This document shows, one piece after another, positions 149-22,271 of a stretch of 39,970 nucleotides of DNA (the first letter of the stretch is position 1; each line of letters starts with the position of its first letter). The stretch lies in the UHGV virus genome UHGV-0404708; one strand, 5' to 3'. The notes beneath the pieces were generated by a model. That model searched no databases and was not told the origin of the DNA. It saw only the letters and a list, made by a program, of their open reading frames with translations. The DNA comes from a virus. The position numbers were made by a program, and so were the translations under genes.

Positions 149-162
149 GAGAGGAAATGACA

Positions 163-1149: not shown

Positions 1150-1200
1150 CGCCTGTTATTAACCTGTGGGTCGTAACAGACCCACTAATGGAGAAAGAAG

Positions 1201-1638
1201 ATGATCACCGACAAACTGTTGATGTTCTCCGAAGCTCAGGCGGTTACGAATACCGCGGCTTCTACTGACGTAATCGATCTCGGTCCAATTGATGGAAACC
1301 GTCGCGATATCGGCGTGGGTTATCCGCTTGAGTTTTGGGTGCTGGTTAACGAAGCCGCCACGGCAAGTGGTGAGGCAACTGTAAACATCCAGTTGCAGAC
1401 GAGTGAGAATAACAGCTCATGGTCCACTATTTATGATAGTGGCGCACTGGCAAAGGCCACCCTGACAGCAGGTAAGCGAGTTGTTTCTGCAAAGGTGCCA
1501 GCCGGTGTTCAGCGATATCTGCGTGTTAACTACTCCGTCGCAACTGGCCCACTAACGGCTGGAAAATTCACTGCGGGTATCAGTCTGGATGTTGATGCCA
1601 ATACGCCGTACCCGATCCGCTCAAAAGTAACTGGTTAA
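1201..1638 (+). CDS. hypothetical virion protein (possible capsid decoration)
   Basis: 145-aa ORF with SD-like GGAGAAAG before ATG; Thr/Ala/Gly/Val-rich; directly after capsid gene. Confidence 0.6.
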   Translation: MITDKLLMFSEAQAVTNTAASTDVIDLGPIDGNRRDIGVGYPLEFWVLVNEAATASGEATVNIQLQTSENNSSWSTIYDSGALAKATLTAGKRVVSAKVPAGVQRYLRVNYSVATGPLTAGKFTAGISLDVDANTPYPIRSKVTG

Positions 1639-1648
1639 GGTGATATCG

Positions 1649-1984
1649 ATGTCAGGTGAGAAACCAAGATACCGCGTTCTGCGCCTCTCTCATATCCATA
1701 ACACACTGTGGCCTGAGGGGGCAGAAATCGAATACGAAGGTGAGCCTGGTAGCGCACTGGAACCTGTTAACGATGCAGCCAGACAGGCAAAAGCAAAGGT
1801 AGCAGGAAAGGTGTCTATGGCAGCAACCAGCACCAAAATCATCAACGATATGTCAGATGATGGTGAACTGCATAGGCTCCGTGAAGAGTACGAATTGCTC
1901 TTTAACGAGAAGCCACACCATAACGCCAAAGCCGAAACGCTCCGCGAGAAGATCGCACATAAGCGTAAAGAACTGGGCGTGTAA
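1649..1984 (+). CDS. hypothetical head-associated protein
   Basis: Track ORF 1640..1984; ATG 1649 preferred (SD AAGGTGA); followed by a terminator. Confidence 0.55.
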   Translation: MSGEKPRYRVLRLSHIHNTLWPEGAEIEYEGEPGSALEPVNDAARQAKAKVAGKVSMAATSTKIINDMSDDGELHRLREEYELLFNEKPHHNAKAETLREKIAHKRKELGV

Positions 1985-2001
1985 GCCTCGCGAATCAGAC
2001 A

Positions 2002-2022
2002 AGGGGCTTCGGCCCCTTTATT
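2002..2022 (+). terminator. rho-independent terminator after capsid block
   Basis: GGGGC-TTCG-GCCCC stem-loop followed by TTTATT. Confidence 0.65.
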
Positions 2023-2034
2023 GCAGGAGTGTAT

Positions 2035-2358
2035 ATGGAACTCGTAAACCTCAAAACCGGCACTGACAGCTACCAGGATGAGAGCGGAGAAACCAGAACT
2101 CGCGATGAATACCCGTGGGGGCTGTGCATCACTCTTAATAACGACACATTGAATAAGCTGAAGGCGCAACCTCAGGGCGTCGGAACAGAAGTGATGATAA
2201 CTGCAAAGGCTGTTATTCGAGGCCTGTCTGCCAGAGAAACTGACGATGGTGTTAATCGCAGCGCCGATCTGCAGATCACTGATATGGCGATCGCTCCTGT
2301 TTCCGGGGATGTAGAAAAATCAGCGGCTGAAACTCTGTACGGCAATGGGGGGGAGTAA
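2035..2358 (+). CDS. hypothetical structural protein
   Basis: Track ORF 2029..2358 (GTG); ATG 2035 preceded by AGGAG; stop overlaps next start (TAATG). Confidence 0.55.
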   Translation: MELVNLKTGTDSYQDESGETRTRDEYPWGLCITLNNDTLNKLKAQPQGVGTEVMITAKAVIRGLSARETDDGVNRSADLQITDMAIAPVSGDVEKSAAETLYGNGGE

Positions 2359-2963
2359 TGGCCTCTGTAGTAGAGATCTGCAATCGTGCGCTGTCCAATA
2401 TTGGCAACAGCCGCAGCATTAACAGCCTGACGGAAGCCAGCAAGGAAGCGGGGGAATGTTCGCTGCACTTTGAGGCCTGCCGTGATGCTGTTCTTTCTGA
2501 TTTTGACTGGAACTTTGCTACCAAACGCGTGGCGCTTGCAGATACGAGCAATCCACCGCCTGACTGGGAATATGCGTACCAGTACCCGTCCGATTGTCTG
2601 CGCATTACTGAAATTATGCTTCCTGGCGTACGCAATCCAACAGCAGCAATGCGCGTTCAGTACGAAGTTGGTGCAGACACCAACGGAACAGGAAAATTGA
2701 TCTACACAGACCAGCCTCAGGCATGGCTCAAGTATGTCTCTCGCGTTACAGATGTAAACATGTTTGATGCCATTTTTATGGAGGCGCTGGCCTGGCGTCT
2801 TGCGGCAGCCATTAACATGGCGCTGACTGGAAATGCGGATCTCGGTACATTTGCTCTCAATATGTACAATCGCGTGATTCTTAGTGCTGGCTCGCATAGC
2901 CAGAATGAATCACAGGAACCACAGCCACCGGTTGACGAGTTTACCATTGCGAGGTTGTCCTGA
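2358..2963 (+). CDS. tail tubular protein A-like (gatekeeper/adaptor)
   Basis: 201 aa; N-terminal pattern resembles T7 gp11-type proteins; immediately upstream of the 823-aa tube B-like gene. Confidence 0.6.
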   Translation: MASVVEICNRALSNIGNSRSINSLTEASKEAGECSLHFEACRDAVLSDFDWNFATKRVALADTSNPPPDWEYAYQYPSDCLRITEIMLPGVRNPTAAMRVQYEVGADTNGTGKLIYTDQPQAWLKYVSRVTDVNMFDAIFMEALAWRLAAAINMALTGNADLGTFALNMYNRVILSAGSHSQNESQEPQPPVDEFTIARLS

Positions 2964-5434: not shown

Positions 5435-5898
5435 TGATCTATGTTCAAATTATTCCCGCAACCGAAGAGCATCTTCAGATGATTTTGCCGGATGTTCGTC
5501 AGGCTGATATTGACGAACTGTATGCGGTATCACTGATGACTACCGAAGATGCGCTGCGTGTTGGTCTGCGTACTGCGACTATGGCCTGGTCAGGATTTGC
5601 GAACGGAGAACTGGTAACCATGTTTGGCGTATCTCCGGCGTCAATGATCGGTGGCAATGGTACGCCATGGCTGGTCGGAACCAGCCGTATTGAAAAATAT
5701 CAGAAGACATTTCTTCGCCACTGCCGACCTGTATTGCAGCAGATGCTGGCAGTTTATCCGCGCCTGGAAAACTACGTCGACGAGCGAAACCATGTTGCCA
5801 AAGCATGGCTGCACTGGCTTGGATTCAGGCTTGAAGAAGCCGCGCCTTATGGTGCTCTTGGTCTTAATTTCCACAGATTTCACATGGAGAGAAAATAA
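5434..5898 (+). CDS. hypothetical virion/assembly protein
   Basis: 154-aa ORF; TGATG overlap with upstream stop. Confidence 0.6.
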   Translation: MIYVQIIPATEEHLQMILPDVRQADIDELYAVSLMTTEDALRVGLRTATMAWSGFANGELVTMFGVSPASMIGGNGTPWLVGTSRIEKYQKTFLRHCRPVLQQMLAVYPRLENYVDERNHVAKAWLHWLGFRLEEAAPYGALGLNFHRFHMERK

Positions 5899-6443
5899 TG
5901 TGCGATCCGGTTATTGCTGGTGGCGCAATGCTCGCCATGAGTGGCATTCAGGCATACACCCAGTACCAACAGGGAAAGTATGCCTCGAAGGTTGCAGAAG
6001 CGAACGCAGATATAGCCACAGCTCAGGCAAATGATGCAATAAACAGAGGTAACGCTGAAGCTGAGCAACGGCGCAGAGAGACCCGACAGCGGCTTGGTAC
6101 ACAGGCGGCGACAATGGGGGCTACCGGCGCTGATTTATCTACAGGTAACGCGCTGGATATATTTGGCGACACTGCCCAGTTTGGCGCTCTTGATTCGCTG
6201 ACGACGGTGAATAACGCGCAACGCGAGGCTTACGGTTATCAGGTTCAGGCTGCTAACTATAAAGCAGAAGCCAGTTCAGCCCGTAAACAGGGGAATGTGG
6301 GAGCAGCAACAACATTGCTCACTGCTCCTCTGAAGGCATACGGTGCGTACCAGATGTTTGGTGGGACGTGGAGTCCGTTTACTCAAAGCACTCCTGCGCC
6401 AATCGGGGCAGCAGCAGGAACCAGATTACCCGGAGGATTATAA
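5898..6443 (+). CDS. internal virion protein (gp14-like position)
   Basis: 181 aa, Ala/Gly/Gln-rich; TAATG overlap with upstream gene. Confidence 0.55.
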   Translation: MCDPVIAGGAMLAMSGIQAYTQYQQGKYASKVAEANADIATAQANDAINRGNAEAEQRRRETRQRLGTQAATMGATGADLSTGNALDIFGDTAQFGALDSLTTVNNAQREAYGYQVQAANYKAEASSARKQGNVGAATTLLTAPLKAYGAYQMFGGTWSPFTQSTPAPIGAAAGTRLPGGL

Positions 6444-8956
6444 TGCCAGTCGTACCAACAGTATCCGGACGCCAGGTTGAGAGCCGTGGAGTTCAGTCAG
6501 CAGGCTTGCAGACGTTTTCTCAGCCAGGTATTGGTGATGCTTTTGTTCGGGCAGGGACAGAGGCAATTGATGTTTTGGGGCAGGCAAAACAGCGTGCCAA
6601 TATCGCTCTGGCTCAGGAGGCATCTCTTAACCTCAGTCAGATAAGCAGTGATCTGCTGAATAACCCTGAAACAGGTTTGCTTAACCTGAAAGGGAAAAAT
6701 GCTATTGGAAAAGGTCAGGAGTATACGCAGCAGTTTGATGCTCAGGTCGAACAACTGGCTATGTCGCTGCCGGATGAACAGGCTCGTAATGCTTTCATGC
6801 AGCAGGCGCAGCAGCAGCGCATTCAGTTCACTACGCAGGCCGGGCGGCACGAGATAGGGCAAATAAATGCCTACGAAGAAGGCCAGTTTCAGGCGACACT
6901 GCTGAACAATGGTAAAAATGCCGCAGCATTGTATGGCGACAACGCCGCATATGTATTGGCTAATAAGCAAACTTTCCAGCAAATTGAGGATTACGGCATT
7001 GCACATGGCTGGAGTGACGAGCAAATCCAGGCCAAGAAAATCGAGTTTAAAGAAGCAACAGCAAAAGCAACTGCTCAAAATGCTATTGGAGCAAACTATC
7101 TTCAGGTAAGACAGCAAAACGGCGAGTTAAGCGATACTGCTGCTGGATCTCGCCGTGCTGTAGCAGATAGTGGATCTTCCGATCGTACCCGCGGTATACG
7201 CAACAATAACCCCGGAAATCTTGAATACAGCAAAACTAATCCGTGGGTTGGGCAGACTGGTGATGATGGTCGCTTTGCCAAATTCGAAACCCCTGAACAC
7301 GGTATTCGTGCATTAGGGCGGAACCTGATGTCGTATCAGCGGCAGGGTATTGATACCGTCAGTGAGATAATTAATCGCTGGGCACCGCCCACTGATAAAA
7401 ATGACACAATGTCGTATATCAAAGCAGTGTGCGAACAACTTGGCGTTTCTGCTGATGAGCCTCTCGATGCATCTAATCCGGATACCCTGAAGGCGCTTTG
7501 TGCAGCCATTATCCATCATGAAAACGGTAGCCAGCCATACAGTGATCAGCAGTTAACTGCTGGTGTTAGTGCCGCGCTGGGGCTTTCTCAGCTACCGACA
7601 AAAAATAAACGTTATACCGGTGTAGCCTGGTTCGATGCTTTAAGTGAATCAGATCAGGCCAGCGTGTTGCGACAGACTGATGCACTAGCCAGACAACAGC
7701 AGGCTGAATATAAAACGATGCTCGACAGCCGGGTTCGCGATGCGACGGCTGCGTATATGCGTGGCGTTGAATTTCCTAACCCACCTGGTGAGGATGATTT
7801 TATTGCAGCTTATGGAGTCAGAGAAGGAAACCTGCGATATACCGAGTTTAAGAATACGCAGATCGCCGGACAGTATATAGGCTCTTTCCGCAACATGCCG
7901 ACAAGCAGCATTACAGCATATGTTGAGCAATTACGCCCGGATACTGGTGATACAGGGGATGGGTATGCGGCACGCGCAGCTCTTTATGACAACGTTGTTT
8001 CGGCTGCAAATCAGGTGATAAAGCAGCGGCAGTCGGATCCTGTGCAGTTCTCTCTTGCCTCCGGACAGGCAAAGCCTATCGACATGAGCAATAAGGATAA
8101 CTTTGGACAGAGCGTTGCCTTGCGTGCCGCTCAGGTCAGTGACCTTGCTAAGTCATATGGCACTCCACTGACGTTCTTTTCCAAAGACGAGGCCAATCAG
8201 ATCGGTGTTTTCTTTCGTGATGCTCCAGTTTCCCAACAGGCAGCATATCTCGACACCATCAGGCAGAGCACTGGTGGTGGGCAGGTGTATATGTCAGCAC
8301 TACAGCAGATCAGTGCCAACGCTCCATCTGCTGCCGTTGCCGGGATACTGATGGATAAGCCTGGTGGTATTTTGGCAGAAAAAAACTGGTTTAATCCGGA
8401 TGTTTCCGTGTCTCCTGAAACCGCTGCGCAGACAATTCTTGCTGGCGCGGCGGCTCGTAAAGGTGCTGATGATGCGAAAGGTATTCCGATGCCTAAAGAT
8501 GCTGATCTTCGCCTTGAGTTTTCTGACATGGTGAAGGATGCATTTGCTGGTGACGCTCATGGGGCATCAATGGCATACGAGATCGCAAAGGATTATTACG
8601 CTGGTGTGATGGCGAAAAAAGGCGTGGTATCAGGAGAAATTGACAATGATGTCTGGAAACAGGCTGTTAACGTAGCTACAGGTGGCGTGCATGACTATAA
8701 CGGAATGGGGAATGTCCTTTTGCCGTGGGGAATGTCTGCAGAGCAATTCGATAAGCAGGTTAATCAGGCTTGGAATGAACAAGTTGTCGGCTCCGGGATA
8801 AAAACACCGCCTGGTCAGTATGGTTTGCAAAGTTACGGCGATAGTCAGTACCTGGTGAAACTTGGTACTGGTTATCTGCTGAAAGATGATGGTTCTCCCG
8901 TTGTTCTTAATCTGACACAGAAGCGTCAGAGATTCTCCGGAGATATTCCGCAATGA
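6443..8956 (+). CDS. internal virion/core protein with possible cell-wall hydrolase domain
   Basis: Track ORF 6368..8956; ATG 6443 overlaps upstream stop (TAATG); central block with NNPGNL...WAPP motifs (about nt 7180-7560). Confidence 0.55.
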   Translation: MPVVPTVSGRQVESRGVQSAGLQTFSQPGIGDAFVRAGTEAIDVLGQAKQRANIALAQEASLNLSQISSDLLNNPETGLLNLKGKNAIGKGQEYTQQFDAQVEQLAMSLPDEQARNAFMQQAQQQRIQFTTQAGRHEIGQINAYEEGQFQATLLNNGKNAAALYGDNAAYVLANKQTFQQIEDYGIAHGWSDEQIQAKKIEFKEATAKATAQNAIGANYLQVRQQNGELSDTAAGSRRAVADSGSSDRTRGIRNNNPGNLEYSKTNPWVGQTGDDGRFAKFETPEHGIRALGRNLMSYQRQGIDTVSEIINRWAPPTDKNDTMSYIKAVCEQLGVSADEPLDASNPDTLKALCAAIIHHENGSQPYSDQQLTAGVSAALGLSQLPTKNKRYTGVAWFDALSESDQASVLRQTDALARQQQAEYKTMLDSRVRDATAAYMRGVEFPNPPGEDDFIAAYGVREGNLRYTEFKNTQIAGQYIGSFRNMPTSSITAYVEQLRPDTGDTGDGYAARAALYDNVVSAANQVIKQRQSDPVQFSLASGQAKPIDMSNKDNFGQSVALRAAQVSDLAKSYGTPLTFFSKDEANQIGVFFRDAPVSQQAAYLDTIRQSTGGGQVYMSALQQISANAPSAAVAGILMDKPGGILAEKNWFNPDVSVSPETAAQTILAGAAARKGADDAKGIPMPKDADLRLEFSDMVKDAFAGDAHGASMAYEIAKDYYAGVMAKKGVVSGEIDNDVWKQAVNVATGGVHDYNGMGNVLLPWGMSAEQFDKQVNQAWNEQVVGSGIKTPPGQYGLQSYGDSQYLVKLGTGYLLKDDGSPVVLNLTQKRQRFSGDIPQ

Positions 8957-10755
8957 GTTACTTTGGCCTTAATCCAGTAAACCAGAATCAGCAGCTTGAC
9001 GAAGCAGCATCAAATCCAGCTGGCTTTAACAGCGATGTTGGTTTTTTCGACAATGCTGTAGGAGCGGCATTGTCTGGTTTGTACTCCGGGCTGGTGGCAA
9101 AGCCAGATCAGTTGCTATGGGCAGGAATGGATAAAATCGTATCCCCGATTGCTCAGTTTGTTAACGAAAACACCTCGCTCAATGACACTTCAGTTTCATA
9201 CATTGCTGAGCAGAGAAAACTAGCAGAGCAGCAGGTTAAGCGGCTGACGCCTGATGCCGCGACAACCGGAACCGCCGGGCAGGTCCTTTATGGGTTGTTC
9301 GATATGGGCGGGCAGGCTGTTGTCGGTACAACGCTCGGTGGTCCGGTCGGAGGTGCTGCGGCGGTAACTTCTCTACAGGGTTTTTCTGAGTTTGAACGGC
9401 TGACAGCACAGGGTGTTGATTTCAGGACGGCGCAGGAAGCAGGATTAGTGCAGGGTATTACTGCTGGTGCCGGAACACTGATCCCAATGAGCCTCGGGTT
9501 ACGTGCTGGCGGTGCGCTGGCGGAAGGTGTGGCGGCTCAGCTTGCGCGGACGGGTGAAAGTTCAGTGCGACGCGCCGCAGCAACAGCAGTACGTGCAACG
9601 CCAGATATTGCCTATGCCGCAGGTACAAATATTGCGTTCGGTATGGCACAGCGTGGGCTTACTGCAAAAACGCTTCGTGATGGTGGCTATAGCGAAATGG
9701 CTAACCAGTATGATGTGTTGGATCGACAGGCAATTGCTATTGATGCTGTTCTTGGGGTGGCGTTTGGTGGTGTCGGCAGATTTATTAACTCTCGCAGCGA
9801 GTCTACAAGCGCACCAAATTTTTCACCAGTTGATATCGATGCTGCACTGGCGGCGAATGCCTCTCATCATGCTGAAATTGATATTGCTCCCGGCGTTCCG
9901 ATCAACGTGCTTTCGCGTAATTCGCACATTCAGGCTCTGCGAAAAGCCATGTCTGATGTTAGCCAGGGGAGACCTGTAGACGTTGCCAGCATTGTTGAGT
10001 CTGCATCTTTCAGTGAAATTCCTGGGCGCAAGAGTCTGCTGTCTCAGGCAGTTAATGAGGCTCTGTCATCTGTAGATGATGGAGTAACGGCGCGCGCTAT
10101 AGAAAATCGGTTGCTTGAAGAACAGGCCGCGCAGCTTTTGCCGCGTGGAGATAGACAGGTTTACCAGTCTGAAATCGCTAATAGCCAACGAATTATTGAA
10201 AATTTCACTGAACAGCGTGCACAAATTCTTGCAGAAGAGCCAACCGGTAGCGGTAAAGCTTTGTCTCGTGCTCGATCAGATAAACAGGCCAGACTTCGCG
10301 ATATTGATCAACGAATCCGGCAGGCACAAGAACGCCTGGAATTTTCCCGTAACGCGTTGGCACCGCACGAGCCTGGCGGTCAGTTTTTTGAAGCTCGAGC
10401 AGAACTGGCTCGGAGACAGCAGGCAGAAAGTGAACTTAATGCTCAGGCTGTTTCATTCTATAAAACAGCAGAGGTCAGGACGCCAGACGAAGTAGCTCCT
10501 TTTGAGCCTGATAAAATATTGCAACAGGCAGAACAAAAAATGATGTCAGATCAGGCAGGAGATATTGATCTGCGCATAGCTGAAGACTCGCTGCTTGAAT
10601 CACCTGACATGATAATCACCGTGCTGGATGATGATGGTAATCCACAATCGCGCAGTGCGCGTGAAGTACTGGATGAAGCGAACAGGGAAAGTGAGCAGGC
10701 AATACAGGATTCCAGCCTGTTTGATGTCGCTGTGGCGTGTTTCTTGAGAGGTTAA
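8953..10755 (+). CDS. internal virion/core protein
   Basis: 600 aa; Gly/Ala-rich N-terminal half, coiled-coil-like C-terminal half; ATGA overlap with upstream stop. Confidence 0.55.
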   Translation: MSYFGLNPVNQNQQLDEAASNPAGFNSDVGFFDNAVGAALSGLYSGLVAKPDQLLWAGMDKIVSPIAQFVNENTSLNDTSVSYIAEQRKLAEQQVKRLTPDAATTGTAGQVLYGLFDMGGQAVVGTTLGGPVGGAAAVTSLQGFSEFERLTAQGVDFRTAQEAGLVQGITAGAGTLIPMSLGLRAGGALAEGVAAQLARTGESSVRRAAATAVRATPDIAYAAGTNIAFGMAQRGLTAKTLRDGGYSEMANQYDVLDRQAIAIDAVLGVAFGGVGRFINSRSESTSAPNFSPVDIDAALAANASHHAEIDIAPGVPINVLSRNSHIQALRKAMSDVSQGRPVDVASIVESASFSEIPGRKSLLSQAVNEALSSVDDGVTARAIENRLLEEQAAQLLPRGDRQVYQSEIANSQRIIENFTEQRAQILAEEPTGSGKALSRARSDKQARLRDIDQRIRQAQERLEFSRNALAPHEPGGQFFEARAELARRQQAESELNAQAVSFYKTAEVRTPDEVAPFEPDKILQQAEQKMMSDQAGDIDLRIAEDSLLESPDMIITVLDDDGNPQSRSAREVLDEANRESEQAIQDSSLFDVAVACFLRG

Positions 10756-10760
10756 ATTAA

Positions 10761-13235
10761 ATGAGACAGGAATGTATACAAGCGGTCCAGCAGGCGGCGC
10801 AGCGCACGTTAACGGCGCGAGAAATACAGAACATTGAAGACCGCATTTATCGAAATATGCGCTCCATTGCTCGTGATGACCCGATGTCGTGGCGACAACT
10901 TTCCGAATCAGAGCGGCTATATCGTGCAGCACAATTGGCATCTGAAGAATTACAGCGAGAAGCGGCATTAAAGAAACGTCGTGTGGCCCTCACTATAGCC
11001 GCACGTCAGAGATTGGATAAATTTATCAATAGCTATCAAGGGTCTGATGGGAAACTTGGCGCTCTTAACCGTACTATTGCTTTTAATGCAGACGGTAAAT
11101 CGAATTTCCTCTCTGTTGAGTCCAGAACAAAAGCCACTCGTGATTATGCATTGAGTCAATTGCAAGAGGCATTTGAAGCAGTTGATCCTCGCTTTTTTGG
11201 CCTGTTTGAAGATGAAGCGGGCGTACGTGACCTGGTATATGAAATGCGGGGGCAAAATACTGGCAATGCTAAAGCAAGAAAAGGTGCTAAGGCGTGGAGA
11301 GAAGTTACAGAGCTGCTGCGCCGCCGGTTTAATGATGCTGGTGGGGACATTGGCTATCTCGAAAACTGGGGGATCCCTCAACATCATTCTATGGAAAAGG
11401 TTGGTGCGGTATCAAAAGATAAATGGGTTAGCGATGTTATAGGTAAGCTGGATCGCAAATATTATACCCGAGCCGATGGACAACTGATGAACGATGACGA
11501 GTTGTCTGCATTTCTTGGAGAGGCTTATAACACGATCGCTACAGGTGGGCTGAATAAGCTTACTGATACCGGAATGCGAATTTCCGGCGCACGTGCTAAC
11601 CGTGGTAATGCATCACGACAGATACATTTCAAAGATGCAGATTCCTATCTGCAATATCAGCAACTTTATGGCGATCGCTCTCTATGGGAAATCATGGTCG
11701 GTCACCTGGAAGGTATCAGTAAAGATATTGCACTGGTGGAAACATATGGCCCAAACCCCGATCATGTTTTCCGCTCTCTTCTTGATCAGGTGAAGGCAGA
11801 AACGGCAACAGCTAACCCGAGTAAAACCGGTAAAGTCGAGCGGCTGGCGAACAACACAGAGAATCTGTACAACTTTATTTCCGGAAAGACACAGCCTGTA
11901 GCAAATCCGCACATCGCGCGATGGTCTGACAATATCCGCAACTGGCTGGTTGCCAGCAGACTCGGATCCGCGTTGCTGTCATCGTTCTCTGATCTTGGAA
12001 CCATGTATCTGTCTGCGAAGGTGACCAACCTTCCAATGAACCAGTTATTCCGCAACCAGCTTGAAGCTATGGACCCAACGAACCGTACTGAGCTTGCGCG
12101 GGCGCGCCGCGCTGGTCTGGCGATGGGATCTCTACTTGGCAGCGTTAACCGCTGGGCGATGGATAATATGGGGCCGTCAGTGTCTCGTTGGGCGGCAACG
12201 GCGGTAATGCGTGCCAGTGGGCTTACAGCATGGTCAGATGCGCACAAGCGCGCCTATGGCGTAACCATGATGGGAAGCATGGGAGAAGTAGTGTCACGGA
12301 CACCAGACCTTCGTAGCCTCGATGACTCTGATTTTCGTATCCTGAAAAGCAAAGGGATTACTGACACAGACTGGAGCGTATGGAAGCTGGCGCAACAGGA
12401 GGACTGGGGGAACGGTAATAATACGATGCTGACACCGGAAAGCATTATGCGTATCCCTGATTCAGTAGTTAAACATCTTGGTGAGCCTGAACGCGTGAAA
12501 TTTGAGGCAATGCGTAAACTGCTCGGTGCCGTAACTGAAGAAGTTGATATGGCTGTTATTACACCGGGAGCACGTGAGCAACTGATAACCGGTTCTGGTA
12601 TTCAGCGTGGAACATGGAAAGGTGAATTAACGAGAAGTGTTTTCCTGTTTAAATCGTTCCCTATCTCGGTTGTTATGCGTCACTGGTCACGCGCTATGGG
12701 TATGCCGTCTGCTGGTGGGCGTGCGGCATATATTGCGACGTTTATTGCCAGTACGACCATTCTTGGCGCTTTGTCGCAGCAACTTAACGACCTTGCGTCT
12801 GGTCGTAATCCTCGAGAGATGACAGGAGAAGATGCCGCAAAATTCTGGCTTGGTGCTCTACTGAAAGGTGGTGGTCTTGGTCTTTACGGTGACTTTTTAT
12901 TGTCAGATCACACTAGGTACGGAAGCGGCGCGCTGGCGTCGATGCTTGGCCCGGTAGCTGGTCTGGTTGATGACGTGGTGAAGATTGCTCAGGGCATACC
13001 GTTAAATGCTGTGGAAGGGAAGAGTGAGCAGACTGGTGGTGATCTGGTGAAGCTGGGGAAAGGTTTGATGCCTGGTGCGAATCTCTGGTATTTGAAGGCG
13101 GCTCTCGATCACATGATCTTTAACCAGATGCAGGAGTATTTTTCACCAGGCTATTTGCGTAAAATGGAGCAACGTTCGAAGAAAGAGTTTAACCAGACAT
13201 ACTGGTGGCGACCTCAGGATGTCACTCCGCAATAA
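10761..13235 (+). CDS. large internal virion/core protein (gp16-like position)
   Basis: 824 aa; SD GAGAGG upstream; last gene of the co-oriented virion block. Confidence 0.55.
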   Translation: MRQECIQAVQQAAQRTLTAREIQNIEDRIYRNMRSIARDDPMSWRQLSESERLYRAAQLASEELQREAALKKRRVALTIAARQRLDKFINSYQGSDGKLGALNRTIAFNADGKSNFLSVESRTKATRDYALSQLQEAFEAVDPRFFGLFEDEAGVRDLVYEMRGQNTGNAKARKGAKAWREVTELLRRRFNDAGGDIGYLENWGIPQHHSMEKVGAVSKDKWVSDVIGKLDRKYYTRADGQLMNDDELSAFLGEAYNTIATGGLNKLTDTGMRISGARANRGNASRQIHFKDADSYLQYQQLYGDRSLWEIMVGHLEGISKDIALVETYGPNPDHVFRSLLDQVKAETATANPSKTGKVERLANNTENLYNFISGKTQPVANPHIARWSDNIRNWLVASRLGSALLSSFSDLGTMYLSAKVTNLPMNQLFRNQLEAMDPTNRTELARARRAGLAMGSLLGSVNRWAMDNMGPSVSRWAATAVMRASGLTAWSDAHKRAYGVTMMGSMGEVVSRTPDLRSLDDSDFRILKSKGITDTDWSVWKLAQQEDWGNGNNTMLTPESIMRIPDSVVKHLGEPERVKFEAMRKLLGAVTEEVDMAVITPGAREQLITGSGIQRGTWKGELTRSVFLFKSFPISVVMRHWSRAMGMPSAGGRAAYIATFIASTTILGALSQQLNDLASGRNPREMTGEDAAKFWLGALLKGGGLGLYGDFLLSDHTRYGSGALASMLGPVAGLVDDVVKIAQGIPLNAVEGKSEQTGGDLVKLGKGLMPGANLWYLKAALDHMIFNQMQEYFSPGYLRKMEQRSKKEFNQTYWWRPQDVTPQ

Positions 13236-13430
13236 GGAAGTGTTGTGTTTTTAATTATTTTGAGTGTGATAATTTCTGGTGGATTGTTATTTATTGACCG
13301 CTACAAATATTTTCTTAACCCTCAGACTCAAGCTATTTGCTGGTTCATCTTTGTTGTGCAGGGAGTAGTTCTTGTTGCAAGCCTTATTGAGGGGAGGCCT
13401 CTTATTTTTACTGGGTAAATAGGTGACTAC

Positions 13431-13727
13431 ATGCAAGCTATAGGATTCATTGTTTATATCGTCGTTGGTCTTTTTCAGTTGGCAGCAATTATGGCTGGGC
13501 TTGAATCATGGTGGGGATTGCACTGGATAATTGCAGCCCCCATCGCTTTCATCGTGAGCTATATTCCATTTGTTGGAGCGATTGTTGGTATGGTTGGCGC
13601 TGTGGATGTATGGCGGTGGGAGTGGTGGCAGGCTGGCCTTCTCTTCTTTGGTGGGATCATCTTTGCTATTGTCTGCGGTGGAATGTCATCATTTTTCGAA
13701 CGGCTATCATTCAGAAAAGGAACGTGA
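13431..13727 (+). CDS. small integral membrane protein
   Basis: 98 aa with 3-4 hydrophobic helices; SD AGGTGA; stop codon lies inside a GTGACATGTCAC palindrome. Confidence 0.6.
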   Translation: MQAIGFIVYIVVGLFQLAAIMAGLESWWGLHWIIAAPIAFIVSYIPFVGAIVGMVGAVDVWRWEWWQAGLLFFGGIIFAIVCGGMSSFFERLSFRKGT

Positions 13728-13735
13728 CATGTCAC
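13724..13735. repeat. GTGACATGTCAC palindrome, copy 1
   Basis: Perfect 12-bp palindrome containing the TGA stop of 13431..13727; directly 5' of a terminator. Confidence 0.8.
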
Positions 13736-13736
13736 A

Positions 13737-13760
13737 GGCCGCTTTCGCGGCCTTGTTTTT
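13737..13760 (+). terminator. rho-independent terminator
   Basis: GGCCGC-TTTC-GCGGCC followed by TTGTTTTT. Confidence 0.7.
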
Positions 13761-13920
13761 AACGAATGCCACCGCCGCCAGGGCGGGAATCCGCAGAACG
13801 CCCACCGCAGCGGGAGCCGTCAGCGGCAGTATCGCTGTCGTGCTGACAACGACCGGCAAAGGCCTGAGTTGAAGCTACCAGAGACAACAAAACGAACAGT
13901 GCAGCAAATGCTTTTTTCAT
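13759..13920 (-). CDS. small secreted peptide (Sec-type signal peptide, 31-aa Gly/Arg/Ser-rich mature part with 2 Cys)
   Basis: ATG at 13920 (in frame within track ORF 13759..13944); n-region MKK, hydrophobic core, AFA cleavage-like motif; weak SD; higher GC than neighbours. Confidence 0.35.
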   Translation of the reverse strand: MKKAFAALFVLLSLVASTQAFAGRCQHDSDTAADGSRCGGRSADSRPGGGGIR

Positions 13921-13991
13921 TTGAAATTTCCATCTATAAGCCACCTCAATGTGGCGTCAATGAGTGTAGCACTGACTTTTGTTTCATCCAC

Positions 13992-14012
13992 AAAAAAGCC
14001 CGCGCTGCGGGC
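13992..14012 (-). terminator. rho-independent terminator ending the minus-strand accessory operon
   Basis: Minus sense: GCCCGC-AGC-GCGGGC followed by TTTTTT; a few nt 3' of the stop of 14018..14650. Confidence 0.65.
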
Positions 14013-14017
14013 TTCTA

Positions 14018-14650
14018 TTAATGCAGTTTATCTTTGCTTATAACCAGTAGTCTGTGGGTATGCACATCTTTATCACTGCCCCAACAGAAATCAGCCCACT
14101 GGCTATAGAAATCATCCCATGATGTCATGAAGCTAAGAGGTCTATCTTCTTCAGAGCCATCTGAAACGTATACATTATATCCTGGGGTGTTTATAGCCCA
14201 AGAAATCATTCTTTCCCAGAATCTTCTCCCATCGATTGTTTGTTGCTCATCAGATACAACGATCGCATATTGCTCTAGGAAGAACTGAAAAAAAATCTGA
14301 GGCAAACCATGAACAGCACGGTCATGAATAACATTAGGCGTACGCCATACCATGATCTGCGTACATGTTCTTTTGGCTTCGACGATATCTTCCCGAAAGA
14401 TTAACTTAACCGCATACACCGTTTCTGGAGTATCGCTGGTAGTAATCATTCTGTAATGATCGCCATTACAAGATTTTACAAGGCGATAACCATAAGGTGT
14501 TGTGAATCCCGGAAGAACGAAATCAACCACACCTTTCGCTAAGTAGCTTTCGGTGTGACTAGTGTTCTTCTCAGACATGTTCAGTTTTCTATCGAAATCT
14601 GCTTCTGGGATAATGTATGGCATCGCTTTTCTTGTTGTATTTGTTCTCAT
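14018..14650 (-). CDS. hypothetical protein (unrecognised, accessory)
   Basis: Track ORF 14018..14662; ATG 14650 preferred (SD GGAGGA 5 nt upstream); AT-rich; own operator-like site upstream. Confidence 0.7.
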   Translation of the reverse strand: MRTNTTRKAMPYIIPEADFDRKLNMSEKNTSHTESYLAKGVVDFVLPGFTTPYGYRLVKSCNGDHYRMITTSDTPETVYAVKLIFREDIVEAKRTCTQIMVWRTPNVIHDRAVHGLPQIFFQFFLEQYAIVVSDEQQTIDGRRFWERMISWAINTPGYNVYVSDGSEEDRPLSFMTSWDDFYSQWADFCWGSDKDVHTHRLLVISKDKLH

Positions 14651-14708
14651 TTCGTCCTCCATGTTTGGCTACAGGACGCGTTTTGAAGGGAAGATTAAAA
14701 ATGCTTTC

Positions 14709-14723
14709 TTACCCTTGAGGTAA
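14709..14723. promoter_or_regulatory. operator-like palindrome TTACC-N5-GGTAA
   Basis: TTACCCTTGAGGTAA, exact; upstream of 14018..14650. Confidence 0.5.
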
Positions 14724-14760
14724 TAGTACGCTATTCACCCCCAGTCTGCAATCTGTACAG

Positions 14761-14787
14761 AATTATTTAAAGGCACATCCCTGTGCC
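14761..14787 (-). terminator. possible weak terminator between accessory genes
   Basis: Minus sense GGCACA-GGGA-TGTGCC followed by TTTAAATAATT; interrupted T-run. Confidence 0.35.
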
Positions 14788-14795
14788 GCCGCCCG

Positions 14796-15515
14796 TCAGA
14801 AGAACCCTGCCTTGTCGTTGATGTACTCCGCGTGCGTCTGGATATCACGCAGGCATTTGCTCACACCGACGATGTAGCAGAACATGGTGGTCAGCTCCGC
14901 CGCCGCGCCCGATACGTCGTGCCCGTCGTCCTGTAACTGGTTCAGCAGATTCATCAGCAGTGAGTTCTCAGTCAGGCCGAGAACACCAGACGGGGAATGA
15001 ATCAGGCTGCGGTAGCCGGGCTTCAGCGGGGCACTGTATTCTTTTTTGTCTTCCAGCTTGATCGCCTCCATAATGGCGGGCATGAATTTTTCAATTACCT
15101 GAGTGGCCTTTGATAAATCAGCTCCACCTGAGAGACGAACATCTCCACTGACATTTGCGGGTTTTCTGTCGAAGTAGCAATCTTCCAGTTTTTCGAAGAC
15201 CTCCCACGCTTTTTCAGTCTCAAGAATTTTCGCATGTCGTGCTGCACCGCGAGCGGTCCATAAGAAAAGATGACTTACTTTTGGTGCAATATTAAGCAAA
15301 CCTCTTTGAGAGGACTCGTTCTTAAATGCTCGTAATTCTTCGCCTGTCAGCTTGAAACAATGTTTTCCCTCAATGAATCGATCTGCATTTCGTTGATAGT
15401 TTTGACGAATCAGTTTGGGTTCTGTGTCATACAAATCAGCAAGCATTTCTGTAGTCATTACAGGGATGTTGCAATGAGTTGTTATCGGCAACTTATCAAT
15501 AGCTATATTACGCAT
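14796..15515 (-). CDS. ORF6N-domain protein with C-terminal domain paralogous to 16329..16586 (antirepressor-like)
   Basis: Track ORF 14796..15530; ATG 15515 preferred (SD GGAGG, 8-nt overlap with upstream stop); N-terminus fits the ORF6N/KilA-N-type DNA-binding pattern; C-terminal ~60 aa align with the 85-aa protein. Confidence 0.65.
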   Translation of the reverse strand: MRNIAIDKLPITTHCNIPVMTTEMLADLYDTEPKLIRQNYQRNADRFIEGKHCFKLTGEELRAFKNESSQRGLLNIAPKVSHLFLWTARGAARHAKILETEKAWEVFEKLEDCYFDRKPANVSGDVRLSGGADLSKATQVIEKFMPAIMEAIKLEDKKEYSAPLKPGYRSLIHSPSGVLGLTENSLLMNLLNQLQDDGHDVSGAAAELTTMFCYIVGVSKCLRDIQTHAEYINDKAGFF

Positions 15516-16014
15516 TTTCATTGCCTCCATCTTTCACGACGAAATAGCAATTATCTTTATAATCTAACTGGATGAACTTTATGTTTTCAGGGAGTTTTAC
15601 AGAAAGAGTTTTTGCACAAGCAAAACCAAAATCTGCGCCAGAAGCATCCATATACCTTAATAATTGTTTTAATGCTGAAGGAGAAAAAGTATCTACCTTC
15701 ACCTCAACAGGGTAACCATCTTTTGTTTTTAGGTCTGGTTGACCTGGTCCACCAAGTATTTCAGCGTTAAGGTATTTTGCTATTTCTGGATAAGCGTTGT
15801 ATTCAGAGCGTAGTTTTGCCTTGTTATCGACTGCTAGTTGCATAAGATGATCAAACAAATTGGTATCTAAATCTGCCCCTTCATCCCACATTCTATTTCT
15901 ACAGCTAATCAATTCACTGACCAGAGGTGCACTTTCTTGCCTTAGCATAAGAAGGAGTGGAGAATTAGAAATTAACCAATACAGATCGTCGTTTGAGATT
16001 TTTTGGCCTGGCAT
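15508..16014 (-). CDS. hypothetical protein, possible PD-(D/E)xK-like motif
   Basis: 168 aa; SD AGAGGT 7 nt before ATG; segment GQPDL...YPVEVK resembles a D...E-x-K nuclease motif (weak); translationally coupled to next gene. Confidence 0.6.
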   Translation of the reverse strand: MPGQKISNDDLYWLISNSPLLLMLRQESAPLVSELISCRNRMWDEGADLDTNLFDHLMQLAVDNKAKLRSEYNAYPEIAKYLNAEILGGPGQPDLKTKDGYPVEVKVDTFSPSALKQLLRYMDASGADFGFACAKTLSVKLPENIKFIQLDYKDNCYFVVKDGGNENA

Positions 16015-16328: not shown

Positions 16329-16586
16329 TTATATGGTTTGTTTTCGTAATTGTTCGGCACAATAGTCGAGATGTGTTTGCAGATCCCGCATAGACATCTG
16401 TGAGCTGGTGACGTAGTTAATCAGTGCAGTCAGTTCGGCAAGTGGGCCATCGACATTAAATCCATCCTTATCGAGATCCCGGAGTAATTTCATCAAGTGC
16501 GATCCCTCCACCAGTGACCTGACGCCTCCCGGCGTGTGAATCCTTTCGGTAAATCCGTCTTCCAGTGGATAGTGATACCGCTGCAT
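16329..16586 (-). CDS. small protein (85 aa), paralog of the C-terminal domain of 14796..15515; LexA-controlled
   Basis: Track ORF 16329..16604 (TTG); ATG 16586 with SD GGAG 8 nt upstream; LexA box and sigma70-like promoter immediately upstream. Confidence 0.65.
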   Translation of the reverse strand: MQRYHYPLEDGFTERIHTPGGVRSLVEGSHLMKLLRDLDKDGFNVDGPLAELTALINYVTSSQMSMRDLQTHLDYCAEQLRKQTI

Positions 16587-16607
16587 CTTATCATCTCCAT
16601 GCAATAA

Positions 16608-16781: not shown

Positions 16782-18803
16782 ATGACGGTCTCAACCGAAG
16801 TTGGCCACAACGAATACACTGGTAACGGCGTTACGACTACATTCCCTTATACATTCAGGGTTTTCGATAAATCTGATCTGGTAGTGCAGATAGTTGACCT
16901 TGAAGAGAATATCACTGTCCTGGTTCTTGATACCGATTACTCAGTAACCGGGGTGGGGGGATACAATGGTGGCAATGTAATGCTGAGGACAGCGTTAACT
17001 TCTGGTTATCGTATTTTTGTATCGCGTGAGCTGCCTGTTACGCAGGAAACAGATCTGCGCAATCAGGGAAAGTTTCTGGCAGAGGTGCATGAGGATGCAT
17101 TTGATAAGCTGACGATGCTTATTCAGCAAGTATTTTATAACCTGAGCAAGGTAATAAAAGTTCCTGAATCAGGGAACTGGTTGGTTCCAACAATTAGGTT
17201 AAGAAAGAATAAAATCTTTGCATGGGACGAAGAGGGAAATCCAATTGCTGTATCACCTGAATCAGGTAGTGCCTCCGATGTAATGATTGAGCTGGCAAAA
17301 TCATCCGGGGCTGGGTTGATTGGCACAACGTCGGGGGGGACCGTTCAATCAGTGCTGGATGACTGTCATGCAAGGCTCATCACATGTGAGCGCAACAGCC
17401 GGGTGGAAAATTTTTACACGCTGGCGGAAACCTGCACAGCGGAGCTTTTATCGCTGAATGCCCCGGAGGCATATGACAAATCCATTACGCTGACGGTCAA
17501 TGAGGAACTGACCACAGACTATACCGGTCCGGTCACAGGTCATTGCAGCATCGGTAATCCGCAGAACTACACCATTGCGATGTGTACGAGCACAACTCTG
17601 GAATATCAGGTTTCCTCGGTGGTACTGGAGAGTGACGGCACGTTCAGTTTCGCCAGAAGCTGGACGGGGGCTAAGTCTTTTAAACTGTATCGTACATCAA
17701 ATAACGGTCTGGTAACCGTCTGGGAAGATCCGCTGTGTATACGTTCTTACCGGATGCCATCGGATGCCGGAGACGAAACGGTAAGGGTAATGAAAGACCG
17801 TACGTACACCTACGACCAGGCGGTGTCGGCCATTGCCCTGATGGCGCAGGGGCACAGTCAGACTGAGCGTTTTGTTCGCGGGTTGTGTGCGATTGTGGGT
17901 AGTGGTGGTAGCGAGGGGAGTGTGCCTTTTTTCGTGAACCGCATGTCAGCGCAGACATCGTCACAGTATTACCGGACGGGAAACGCAGCGTGGGTGGCGT
18001 ATGCGCTGGCGTATTATCTGCTGAAATATCCGGACGGTGAAATGGCCGTTGTTGCCCGGGATAAACTGACGCAGTGCGCAGAATGGATTGAAACGTTCAG
18101 AGTGGCAGACAACGGAGATATTCGTTATGGGTTGTATACATCCGGTAGCGGACGGTATCTGGATGGCGTCTTTTACCCTGATTTTAAAGCAGACTGGTGC
18201 ACATCGGAGCACCAGTTTGATTTGTGGTTTCTGTTTGACCTGATGGGGCGGGTGGGCTTCACCGGCTACGCTGAAAAGGCGAAAGCCCTGGCGGATGCCA
18301 TTATGGAAAAGCTGTGGGTGGAGGATGAAGGGCGATTTTATGCCGGGATGCGAACCACCGGGCCTGACAAGGCCTCACCACTGGACTGTGCAAGCTGGGG
18401 CGGGCTGTTTGTGTCCAATATCGATATGGAAAAAGCCCGGCGGTGTTTTACTTACCTGGACAGATTCTGGTACGCCACGCACGATGCGACAGGGTACACG
18501 CCTTATCATCCGGAATATGGCTACCCGAATAAACAGCGGGGAGTCTGGGTGGAGGGCAGTGCAGGCGTGGCATTGCTGGCCCGTAGACTGGGAGATGATG
18601 CCACCGCGATGGATATTCTGGCGAGGCTGGCACCACTGCGCACACGTTATGGTTACATTGATTCAAGCGATTATCCAGATAATGATGACATGCCGCCGTG
18701 GCCCTCTTCCTGCAACACGGCCTGGATGATACTGGCATGCGATCCGCAGGGGTTCTGGAACGTTGGGGTAAGTAGTCTGTCTGGACGTTATTATAGGTAT
18801 TGA
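16782..18803 (+). CDS. tail fiber/tailspike with T7-type N-terminal attachment domain and a distinct C-terminal domain
   Basis: 673 aa; N-terminus (YTGNGVTTTFPYTF...DTDY) follows the T7 gp17 N-domain pattern; C-terminal ~380 aa Trp/Tyr-rich. Confidence 0.75.
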   Translation: MTVSTEVGHNEYTGNGVTTTFPYTFRVFDKSDLVVQIVDLEENITVLVLDTDYSVTGVGGYNGGNVMLRTALTSGYRIFVSRELPVTQETDLRNQGKFLAEVHEDAFDKLTMLIQQVFYNLSKVIKVPESGNWLVPTIRLRKNKIFAWDEEGNPIAVSPESGSASDVMIELAKSSGAGLIGTTSGGTVQSVLDDCHARLITCERNSRVENFYTLAETCTAELLSLNAPEAYDKSITLTVNEELTTDYTGPVTGHCSIGNPQNYTIAMCTSTTLEYQVSSVVLESDGTFSFARSWTGAKSFKLYRTSNNGLVTVWEDPLCIRSYRMPSDAGDETVRVMKDRTYTYDQAVSAIALMAQGHSQTERFVRGLCAIVGSGGSEGSVPFFVNRMSAQTSSQYYRTGNAAWVAYALAYYLLKYPDGEMAVVARDKLTQCAEWIETFRVADNGDIRYGLYTSGSGRYLDGVFYPDFKADWCTSEHQFDLWFLFDLMGRVGFTGYAEKAKALADAIMEKLWVEDEGRFYAGMRTTGPDKASPLDCASWGGLFVSNIDMEKARRCFTYLDRFWYATHDATGYTPYHPEYGYPNKQRGVWVEGSAGVALLARRLGDDATAMDILARLAPLRTRYGYIDSSDYPDNDDMPPWPSSCNTAWMILACDPQGFWNVGVSSLSGRYYRY

Positions 18804-18826
18804 TTCCTGATAAAGTAATAATTTAA

Positions 18827-18836
18827 CCACATATGG
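18827..18836. promoter_or_regulatory. CCACATATGG motif (CCAYATRTGG family)
   Basis: Within a ~25-bp block nearly identical, in inverted orientation, to 37171-37200; upstream of lysis genes. Confidence 0.35.
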
Positions 18837-18899
18837 TTTATTGTGTATGATGAACTCATCAATAAGTGGGTTCTTCATGCACATTAAACGGTGGTTTTT

Positions 18900-20218: not shown

Positions 20219-20697
20219 TCTGGGCATTCGTAAAAGCATACTGGAAACAGTTGGTTATCATAGCGATCCTTGCTGTTCTGGTCATGTCAGGAGTTGTAGC
20301 CTGGAATGCACACGGCAGTCGTCAGTACGACGCCGGGTATGCGCAGGCGAAAGAAGACCGCAAAGCCGAAGAAGAAAAAGTTCGTCAGCACTACGAACAG
20401 GAGAAAGCGACTAATGAACGTGAAGCGCAGCAGAGGATCGATCAGGCGCGCAGCGATGCTCTTGATGCTGCCGCTCGCGCTGGCAGGTTGCAGCAACAGC
20501 TCGTTGCCATCCGTGAGCAGCTCAGGCAGTATAACGCCATTGTCGGCGCTGGGGCGTCAGCCGCAGATACCGGAGTTTTGCTTGCCGACGTGTTCAGCAA
20601 ATCTCTCGAGAGAAATAGACAACTGGCAGAGTATGCTGACCGGGCAGCCGAAGCCGGAAGAGTCTGCGAAAAACAGTACGACACCCTGACCAGATAG
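20215..20697 (+). CDS. i-spanin (Rz-like)
   Basis: 160 aa; N-terminal TM helix then charged coiled-coil region; ATGA overlap with endolysin stop. Confidence 0.7.
20414..20689 (+). CDS. o-spanin (Rz1-like lipoprotein) embedded in the +1 frame of the i-spanin gene
   Basis: In track ORF 20306..20689; ATG 20414 (alt 20456) gives signal peptide with lipobox LAGC, then Pro/Ser-rich short mature protein. Confidence 0.65.
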   Translation: MNVKRSRGSIRRAAMLLMLPLALAGCSNSSLPSVSSSGSITPLSALGRQPQIPEFCLPTCSANLSREIDNWQSMLTGQPKPEESAKNSTTP

Positions 20698-20870
20698 CAT
20701 GGCATTTTTCATGGTACTGATTTTCGGTGACGGTATATAAAACGGTATGGTGAAAATCAAGTTGCGGAAAGTTGTTATCAGTCAATTGGTTATGTATGTC
20801 GTAAATAATTGAGTGGGAATGATTAACAGCTAACTCATAGCAAATCATTCCTATTCAGATGCCAACTCAA

Positions 20871-20900
20871 CCCTCTGTTTTTGCAGAGGGTTTTTGTTTT
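20871..20900 (+). terminator. rho-independent terminator after lysis cassette
   Basis: CCCTCTG-loop-CAGAGGG followed by TTTTTGTTTT. Confidence 0.75.
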
Positions 20901-20957
20901 TATGTATTCATTTCTATTCACTCTACACCATATTTTTCGGCGGTACAGGTGACGGTA

Positions 20958-20972
20958 TTACCTTAAAGGTAT
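20958..20972. promoter_or_regulatory. operator-like palindrome (one mismatch)
   Basis: TTACCTTAAAGGTAT, about 45 bp upstream of integrase start. Confidence 0.4.
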
Positions 20973-21014
20973 ACTCTCATACCGTCATGAAAATGGTTTC
21001 TATACGGGTGAATT

Positions 21015-22271
21015 GTGCTTACCGATACAAAATTAAAGAACCTCAAGCCACAGGACAAACTGTACAAAGTTTCCGATCGTGACGGGCTGTATGTAGCTGT
21101 GCTTACGTCAGGTACGGTCTCGTTTCGCTATGACTACCGTATCAACGGTCGCCGCGAAACACTGGTAATTGGGCAGTATGGGCGTGACGGTATCAGCCTG
21201 GCAGAAGCGCGAGAAGAACTGATTGCTGCAAAGAAGCTGCTTAAAGCAGGCCAGTCACCGGCTGCGGCTAAACGTGACGGTATCAAAAAGATTCGTGGTG
21301 CCGAGACGTTTGCGGTACATACCGACAGTTATATGAAACACGTCATCCTGGCTGAAAGTACCCGCGCAATGAAGCTGGCAGTGATCGACCGTGACATACT
21401 TCCTGTTCTTGGCAACAAAATGATGGCTGAAATTACCACATCGATGGTTCGTGATTTGTGTGACAGGATTGTCGAACGCGGTGGTCGGGCAACAGCAGTG
21501 CAGGCCAGGGAGATCATCAGCAGCGTATACCGTCACGCCAATGACCGTGGTCATGGTTTGTTTAATCCTGCGGCTGACATTAAACCTTCGTCTATCGCCA
21601 TATTTAAACCACGAGAGCGAACACTGACACCAGAAGAAATTGGCCTGTTCTTCCGCACGCTGGATGCCATTGGTGCTATGGGCACTATGAAAATGGCTTT
21701 AAAGCTGGTGCTTATCACTATGGTTCGTAAAGGCGAATTCACCAATGCAACGTGGGATGAAATAGATTTTAAAAAATGGACATGGACAATTCCTTCAGAC
21801 CGCATGAAGGGAAGCCGGGCGCACGTTATTTACCTGCCTAAACAGGCACAGGATATATTGGTTGGGTTGCAGATGTGCGCTGGTGGAAGTGAATATCTGG
21901 TTCCTGGTCGTTACAATTTCCGGAAGCCATTATCTAATGCCGCGCTGAACTCTCTGATCGACAGAACGGTGAAAATAATAAATGAAGATGGTGAGCATAT
22001 TCAGGACTTCACCGTACACGATATGCGCCGTACAGCAAGTACGTTGTTGCATGAGGCTGGTTATCCTTCAGACTGGATTGAAAAGGCTCTGGCACATGAG
22101 CAGAAAGGTGTGCGCGCCGTATATAACAAAGCGGAATACGCCAGACAGCGCGCCTACATGTTGCAGCAGTGGGCCGATATGATTGATTCCTGGATTAACG
22201 GGGAGCATACGGATCTGATTCCGTTCTCCCCGTCGAAGTTTGAGAAGTGGATGGAAGACAGTAATAAATAA
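21015..22271 (+). CDS. int: tyrosine integrase, P4-type
   Basis: 418 aa, GTG start; N-terminus MLTDTKLKNLKP... typical of P4-family integrases; recombinase-like C-terminal half. Confidence 0.9.
   Translation: MLTDTKLKNLKPQDKLYKVSDRDGLYVAVLTSGTVSFRYDYRINGRRETLVIGQYGRDGISLAEAREELIAAKKLLKAGQSPAAAKRDGIKKIRGAETFAVHTDSYMKHVILAESTRAMKLAVIDRDILPVLGNKMMAEITTSMVRDLCDRIVERGGRATAVQAREIISSVYRHANDRGHGLFNPAADIKPSSIAIFKPRERTLTPEEIGLFFRTLDAIGAMGTMKMALKLVLITMVRKGEFTNATWDEIDFKKWTWTIPSDRMKGSRAHVIYLPKQAQDILVGLQMCAGGSEYLVPGRYNFRKPLSNAALNSLIDRTVKIINEDGEHIQDFTVHDMRRTASTLLHEAGYPSDWIEKALAHEQKGVRAVYNKAEYARQRAYMLQQWADMIDSWINGEHTDLIPFSPSKFEKWMEDSNK

Follow-up and report, generated by a model that had tools for sequence, protein, structure and literature searches.

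Modular tailspikes with exchanged enzymatic domains are textbook knowledge, and SpikeHunter defines tailspikes by their beta-helix. In Uetakevirus prophages, the receptor-binding domains track the O-serogroup of the host as a rule (PMC10408124). A fold named 'alpha/alpha toroid' is rare among predicted depolymerases: it comprised ~1% of the DepoScope matches and was left out of the training of that model (PMC11326577), comprised less than 1% in Klebsiella prophages (PMC12491483), and appeared as single cases in phage collections; the DepoScope and Klebsiella surveys were computational and seeded from known polysaccharide-degrading domain signatures (PMC11326577, PMC12491483). Here we examined the tail spike / receptor-binding protein gene (16782..18803, + strand; 673 aa plus stop codon, with an ATG start according to the list of open reading frames, ORFs) of the UHGV virus genome UHGV-0404708. 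The window, i.e. the whole stretch of 39,970 nucleotides that was analysed, corresponded to a complete phiV10/epsilon15-like (Uetakevirus) genome, circularly permuted. We propose, with a probability of roughly 0.6, that the C-terminal part of the protein, the single tailspike of this phiV10/epsilon15-like temperate Escherichia coli podophage, is a glycan-hydrolysing receptor-binding module, and we infer its glycan-degrading function from the predicted fold, the conserved residues and the gene context.

Predicted fold and conserved residues of the C-terminal module

The AlphaFold2 model of residues 187–673, built as a monomer on 17 homologs, reached a mean predicted local distance difference test (pLDDT) of 89.6 and a predicted template modelling score (pTM) of 0.89, and the full-length monomer model agreed with it, with low pLDDT for the helices at residues 100–120 and 188–203. 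The model comprised a neck helix (residues 188–203), a beta-sandwich (residues ~208–316) and twelve alternating helices (residues 331–660), which formed six hairpins in a double barrel as in the six-hairpin glycosidases. On this model we assign the fold of the module with high confidence to the (alpha/alpha)6 barrel. The right-handed beta-helix receptor-binding/depolymerase domain of Uetakevirus tailspikes was not found; AlphaFold2 gave the beta-sandwich and the helical barrel. The Ig/FN3-like beta-sandwich (residues 206–330; 17397..17771, + strand), with strands at residues 236–315 and pLDDT of 85–97, forms the first half of the mobile module, and showed partial BFVD matches to FN3 and CarboxypepD_reg-like domains; in distant relatives this domain was found in tandem repeats. 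The six-hairpin glycosidase-like barrel follows (residues 331–673; 17772..18800, + strand).

An earlier note, made from the letters of the window, had described the C-terminal part of the protein as rich in aromatic residues, helical and unlike a beta-helix, and had suggested an (alpha/alpha)-barrel glycosidase. The two peptides that it quoted, WVAYALAYYLLKYPDG and WVEGSAGVALLARRLG, were both present in the ORF translation, and Trp and Tyr together made up 10.8% of residues 331–673, whereas their share in eight further large proteins of this phage was 4.9%. The alternating helices of the model, without a beta-helix, agree with that description, and the predicted (alpha/alpha)6 barrel supports the fold that had been proposed. 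The span given for it, 17600–18803 (residues 274–673), lies inside a real ORF but starts within the module, which begins at residue ~207 (nt 17400).

Sequence searches did not connect the module to a described family. Pfam and NCBIfam gave no match to the module in the window protein and no known enzyme family in 33–43 relatives, and PDB sequence searches (phmmer, and hmmsearch with two family profiles) gave no enzyme-family match. For CAZy family GH15 (PF00723) there was no Pfam match in the protein or in 33 relatives and no match in the PDB profile searches. We found no characterised or solved member of the barrel family in PDB searches or in the literature. The family itself was large and comprised, at 50% identity, 763 representatives, of which 212 had E <1e-30; a second homolog search, with the A1 profile, had no more distant reach than the first.

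Conservation was counted in 110 representatives covering the barrel. Six carboxylates were conserved in at least 95% of them, at the starts of helices 2, 6, 8 and 10. At the N-terminus of helix 2, D345 (codon 17814..17816, + strand), preceded by Y344, was Asp in 107 of the 110 sequences and is a candidate for sugar binding or for the role of the acid. The N-terminus of helix 6 carries an E-H-N/Q-x-D motif, E476-H477-Q478-F479-D480 (18207..18221, + strand; E in 108, H in 107 and D in 108 sequences), with a candidate general acid. Before helix 8 are the carboxylates of D529...L534-D535 (18366..18386, + strand; D529 in 105, L534 in 110 and D535 in 108 sequences), and at the N-terminus of helix 10 there is a W-x-E-G motif, W589-V590-E591-G592 (18546..18557, + strand), in which E591 and G592 were conserved in 110/110 and W589 in 107/110, and which holds a candidate general base. 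R398, H477, W589 and W648 were also conserved. The conserved residues sit at the N-terminal ends of model helices 2, 4, 6, 8, 10 and 12, and it is at that end of the barrel that six-hairpin glycosidases form their active site. The methylmannose-polysaccharide hydrolase MmpH has Asp47 or Asp50, from the first inter-helix (aA-aB) loop, as its catalytic acid and Glu262 as its base (PMC9883506); by topological position, D345 may correspond to Asp47/Asp50 and E591 to Glu262.

The N-terminal ~180 residues attach the spike to the tail, as shown by homology, and the exchanged cassette supplies the predicted Ig-like beta-sandwich followed by the predicted (alpha/alpha)6 barrel of a large unnamed six-hairpin glycosidase-like family. 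In the mechanism that we propose, each barrel would bind a host surface polysaccharide chain within the funnel where the six inner helices have their N-termini, and the glycosidic bond would be hydrolysed by carboxylate acid/base catalysis, with E476 or D345 as candidate acid and E591 or D535 as candidate base. Such cleavage would enable the virion to reach the outer membrane, in the same way as for beta-helix tailspikes.

Relatives, alternative readings and host range

Homology to other fusions started between residues 164 and 209 and extended to the C-terminus. In E. coli, Salmonella enterica and Citrobacter, copies of residues 207–673 with 88–100% identity were found on at least five anchors besides that of Uetakevirus (PF18668, PF03406, PF08400 with or without PF13620, PF12571, and unannotated ones). 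The E. coli Stx2k phage phiSTEC1575, the jumbo phage ph0011 and Yersinia had versions with 40–54% identity, and Microbacterium, Thermus and Coprococcus phages had versions with 24–30% identity. These sequence comparisons indicate that the barrel module is horizontally mobile among very different tail types. Two proteins (P0114, 644 aa, and P0118, 739 aa) carried the module at the N-terminus followed by 170–230 more residues (PF25613 in P0114); therefore, the module is not always the distal end of a fibre.

In other phages the barrel was fused to a nozzle protein (P0153) and to a T4 gp5-type spike (P0151), positions at which barrier-degrading enzymes are expected, and both fusions thus support catalysis. 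Three barrel-only cellular relatives (P0263, P0270, P0280) were encoded in operons with a synthase-type GT2 glycosyltransferase, an arrangement in which exopolysaccharide operons hold their cognate hydrolase. Catalysis is then favoured by three independent lines, i.e. the residue conservation, the GT2 operon context and the nozzle and gp5-spike fusions. The operon of the cellular relatives, on contigs from metagenomes and metagenome-assembled genomes (L012–L016), was itself conserved and also encoded a HEAT-repeat protein of ~1,200 aa, a response regulator and a histidine kinase; judged by its gene content, it looks like an undescribed regulated exopolysaccharide system.

Several observations weigh against a hydrolase. 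No hydrolase signature was found by sequence, Pfam, NCBIfam and PDB profiles included. The same fold occurs in non-hydrolytic enzymes (AGE epimerases/isomerases, linalool dehydratase, terpene cyclases) and in the viral tail protein SSV19 VP4. Finally, carriers of the module spanned at least six O-serogroups, unlike the usual pattern of serogroup-specific depolymerases.

Among the alternatives, the barrel could be a non-catalytic, lectin-like receptor-binding domain for a surface glycan or an outer-membrane protein, with its conserved residues serving binding or folding. We consider this unlikely: six carboxylates, one His and several Trp were near-invariant down to ~25% identity, in Actinobacteria/Thermus phages and in cellular proteins, and such invariance is typical of a catalytic centre, whereas receptor-binding surfaces normally diversify. 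Moreover, the cellular relatives in GT2-synthase operons need no phage receptor binding.

The glycan that a hydrolase of this kind would cleave was approached through the hosts. Module carriers, defined by at least 91% nucleotide identity, amounted to 24 of 5,426 complete E. coli genomes, some with two or three copies, and their O-types were taken from PGAP wzx/wzy names or from the literature. The genome NZ_OZ040331, in which the match was 100% identical to the window, was O16; strain 4/4 was O25, with WbbJ-like genes, Ecol_542 was O25b:H4-ST131, 214-4 was O167 and KFu019 was O69, while RM11911, RM13745 and RM13752 were O45:H16 (PMC7285328). One PF03406-anchored copy came from a genome named O141. 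Over 467 aa, the copies in O16, O25b, O69 and O167 hosts shared 98–99% protein identity, against 94% for the O141-named copy (P0047), and the conserved residues were kept in all of these compared copies.

A target confined to one serogroup was discarded, as the O167 wzy was found in just 3 genomes, one of them a carrier. Galactofuranose as a shared host feature, suggested by glf in the O16 and O167 clusters, was also discarded, since the O25, O69 and O141 clusters were without glf. Rhamnose genes were present in the other clusters examined (O16, O25, O69, O141) and missing from the O167 cluster; thus, no common repeat-unit motif was evident. Because the module occurs in hosts of many O-serogroups, it may act on a sub-motif common to them or on a conserved glycan of enterobacteria, such as the enterobacterial common antigen or the lipopolysaccharide (LPS) core, instead of one O-antigen; the pattern could also reflect a classical specificity blurred by O-antigen switching.

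A tentative extension of the hydrolase reading is that the barrel is a serogroup-independent glycanase which cuts a glycan or linkage common to many Enterobacterales. Candidate common targets are the enterobacterial common antigen, the alpha-linked hexoses of the LPS outer core and the linkage of the O-chain to the core. Such an enzyme would explain the 88–100% identical copies across at least six anchor types in E. coli O16/O25b/O45/O69/O141/O167, Salmonella and Citrobacter.

It is rather improbable that the barrel is a classical serogroup-specific O-antigen depolymerase, spread by O-antigen switching after lysogeny or altered by a few specificity-changing substitutions. Such an enzyme would fit the usual match between receptor-binding domain and host O-type in Uetakevirus prophages (PMC10408124), the O16 and O25b carriers may both belong to the ST131 lineage, and O141 was met twice independently, and the host concerned carries three copies. 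However, the near-identical copies in the O16/O25b/O69/O167 hosts and the O141-named one stood on different anchors and at different genomic sites, the O45:H16 strains represent a further serogroup, and the O167 cluster is without the rhamnose genes of the others. A catalytic non-hydrolase that modifies the glycan (an AGE-type epimerase/isomerase, a lyase or a transglycosylase) is equally improbable: AGE enzymes use a histidine pair on free mono-/disaccharides, whereas here there was one conserved His and no Pfam PF07221 match, and the tail spike position, together with the nozzle and gp5-spike fusions, points to barrier removal.

Virion anchor and phage backbone

The virion-anchor beta-domain (residues 1–85; 16782..17036, + strand) showed ~85% identity to the N-terminus of the phiV10 tail fibre and pLDDT of 83–91. 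It was followed by the anchor helix (residues 100–120), a linker and the neck helix, which together cover residues 86–205 (17037..17396, + strand), as assigned from secondary structure, with low pLDDT in the monomer. The phiV10 tail fibre was the closest relative of the anchor (BLASTP E 4e-73 over residues 1–181), which is thus homologous to the anchors of phiV10 p25 and epsilon15 gp20, as in Uetakevirus tailspikes; past residue 181, BLASTP found no similarity to the phiV10 protein. In the PDB, the anchor matched the Dpo31/Dpo36 N-domain by sequence (E 5e-24) and the Carin-1 phage tail fibre (8ck1_B) by Foldseek (41% identity).

Compared with phiV10, the window anchor had a gap of 46 aa against phiV10 residues 118–165, a deletion visible in the A3 consensus too, and the deletion point, at nt ~17132 (codon 118), coincided with the end of phiV10 DNA similarity. 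The missing segment includes a widely conserved tail-fibre motif (...NRIRNLRDP..DAATK.Y.D) and much of the Pfam signal, and because of this deletion the window copy escapes PF03906 (Phage_T7_tail). The T7 gp17-type N-domain that had been read from the sequence therefore held for the family, as 15 of 18 anchor homologs (50–84% identity) matched PF03906 at E<=0.01 (best E 8.9e-10), but not for the window copy, for which Pfam, PF03906 included, was empty up to E<=10 and BLASTP showed no similarity to T7 gp17. An hhalign alignment of the anchor with T7 gp17 was colinear but weak (E 0.016). We had considered that the anchor was not T7-like, given the empty T7 gp17 BLASTP search, and dropped this view on account of the PF03906 matches of the homologs. 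By sequence, the anchor appears to be a remote, shortened member of the PF03906 family, for which Uetakevirus anchor is the best name.

The backbone closely followed that of described phages. Positions 1–15071 were 97–98% identical to Escherichia phages HEMP4, phiv142-3 and phiV10, and the gene order, from the tail gene to two holins, a GH19 endolysin, Rz and the integrase, was that of phiV10. The tail spike ORF occupied the slot of p25, the only receptor-binding protein of phiV10, between a p24-like gene and the holins; as in Uetakevirus tailspikes, it was the single receptor-binding gene between the antirepressor/p24 region and the holin-endolysin-Rz cassette. In PHROGs, residues 1–125 matched many tail fibre and spike families, and phrog_1640 was among the tail fibre families of the ORF; residues 189–673 matched phrog_7032 and phrog_13714, each of which bears the label 'tail fiber protein'. 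The RefSeq name of the protein was merely 'phage tail protein'.

In blastn, similarity to phiV10 ended at nt 17131 and resumed at nt 18819, 16 nt past the stop codon, at 92.6% identity. The DNA cassette in between (17132..18818, no strand assigned) takes the place of the phiV10 receptor-binding region and oac gene, according to the phiV10 annotation. Recombination has swapped the ancestral beta-helix receptor-binding region and the adjacent O-acetyltransferase gene for a mobile cassette. Between the tail gene and the holins (18804–18890), where phiV10 has its O-acetyltransferase gene oac, there was no O-antigen-modifying gene; therefore, the superinfection exclusion and seroconversion that oac provides are missing from the phage at this site.

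We made further observations on the surrounding genes. At the junction 20697–21015, Rz directly adjoined the integrase gene, as in phiV10, which corresponds to the phage form of the genome; in the lysogen 214-4, Rz was followed by the chromosomal gene yfgI in place of the integrase. Just upstream of the tail gene, a 91-aa ORF (16329–16604, − strand) was paralogous to the C-terminal region of the antirepressor (14796–15530, − strand); both matched phrog_450 and phrog_15539, and phiV10 p24 is a similar small gene in the same place. The antirepressor and the tail gene flank a variable cargo slot: in the window it contained an ORF of unassigned function (15508–16014, − strand; phrog_18738), and in the related 214-4 prophage (L001 3874–4873) a YafO-family toxin pair. 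A promoter and terminator scan around the tail gene gave promoter counts no better than shuffles and yielded no usable signal. Finally, a terminator-like hairpin (18190–18219, + strand), with an 11-bp stem and then a T-rich run, was located inside the tail gene and overlapped the W472...E476-H477...D480 codons; it is probably due to chance.

Significance and comparison with known systems

Tailspike predictors and models of host range for E. coli phages mostly take it that the receptor-binding domain is a beta-helix and follows the O-serogroup, and the module departs from both assumptions. The barrel family is unnamed, invisible to Pfam and NCBIfam, and frequent among the prophages that the pandemic O25b:H4-ST131 lineage carries. 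If the barrel is an active glycanase with a broad or conserved-glycan specificity, it would be a first member of a new family of glycoside hydrolases, with ~760 clusters at 50% identity, and an active glycanase would be a useful reagent or an engineering part to widen the host range of phages and tailocins; if it is a binding domain alone, it would represent a new receptor-binding scaffold.

The closest described systems are the phiV10 tail fibre/tailspike (YP_512279) and epsilon15 gp20, with which the window protein shares the anchor, the slot before the lysis cassette and the 97–98% identical backbone; it differs from them in having an (alpha/alpha)6 barrel for the beta-helix, an anchor that is 46 aa shorter and no downstream O-acetyltransferase gene. 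The module itself was found in a tail protein of Escherichia phage phiSTEC1575-Stx2k and in a hypothetical protein of the jumbo phage ph0011 (52% and 47% identity, respectively, over ~470 aa), which have other anchors and virion types and are annotated just as tail and hypothetical proteins. Among structures, the top Foldseek matches were GH78 alpha-L-rhamnosidases (8hmm, 8iwd, 4xhc) and GH76 alpha-mannanases (6u4z, 4v1s), and the GH78 alignments spanned both the beta-sandwich and the barrel (560–576 columns); identity to GH78 and GH76 was 9–13%, the root-mean-square deviation of the two-domain alignments was high, and a family signature was missing. MmpH (7qsj) and the GH15-type enzymes (9ju0, 5z3a, 1lf6, 1ulv; clan GH-L) showed 12–14% identity and no profile-level link, and, unlike in these enzymes, the barrel of the window protein follows an Ig-like domain and is carried by a virion anchor. 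The (alpha/alpha)6 hydrolases of exopolysaccharide operons (BcsZ/PssZ type, e.g. 6r2m) had no sequence relation to the module, and the analogy with them is by gene context alone. Finally, like the 'alpha/alpha toroid' depolymerases of DepoScope and of the Klebsiella prophage survey, the window protein carries a rare predicted depolymerase fold, other than the beta-helix, on a phage tail protein.
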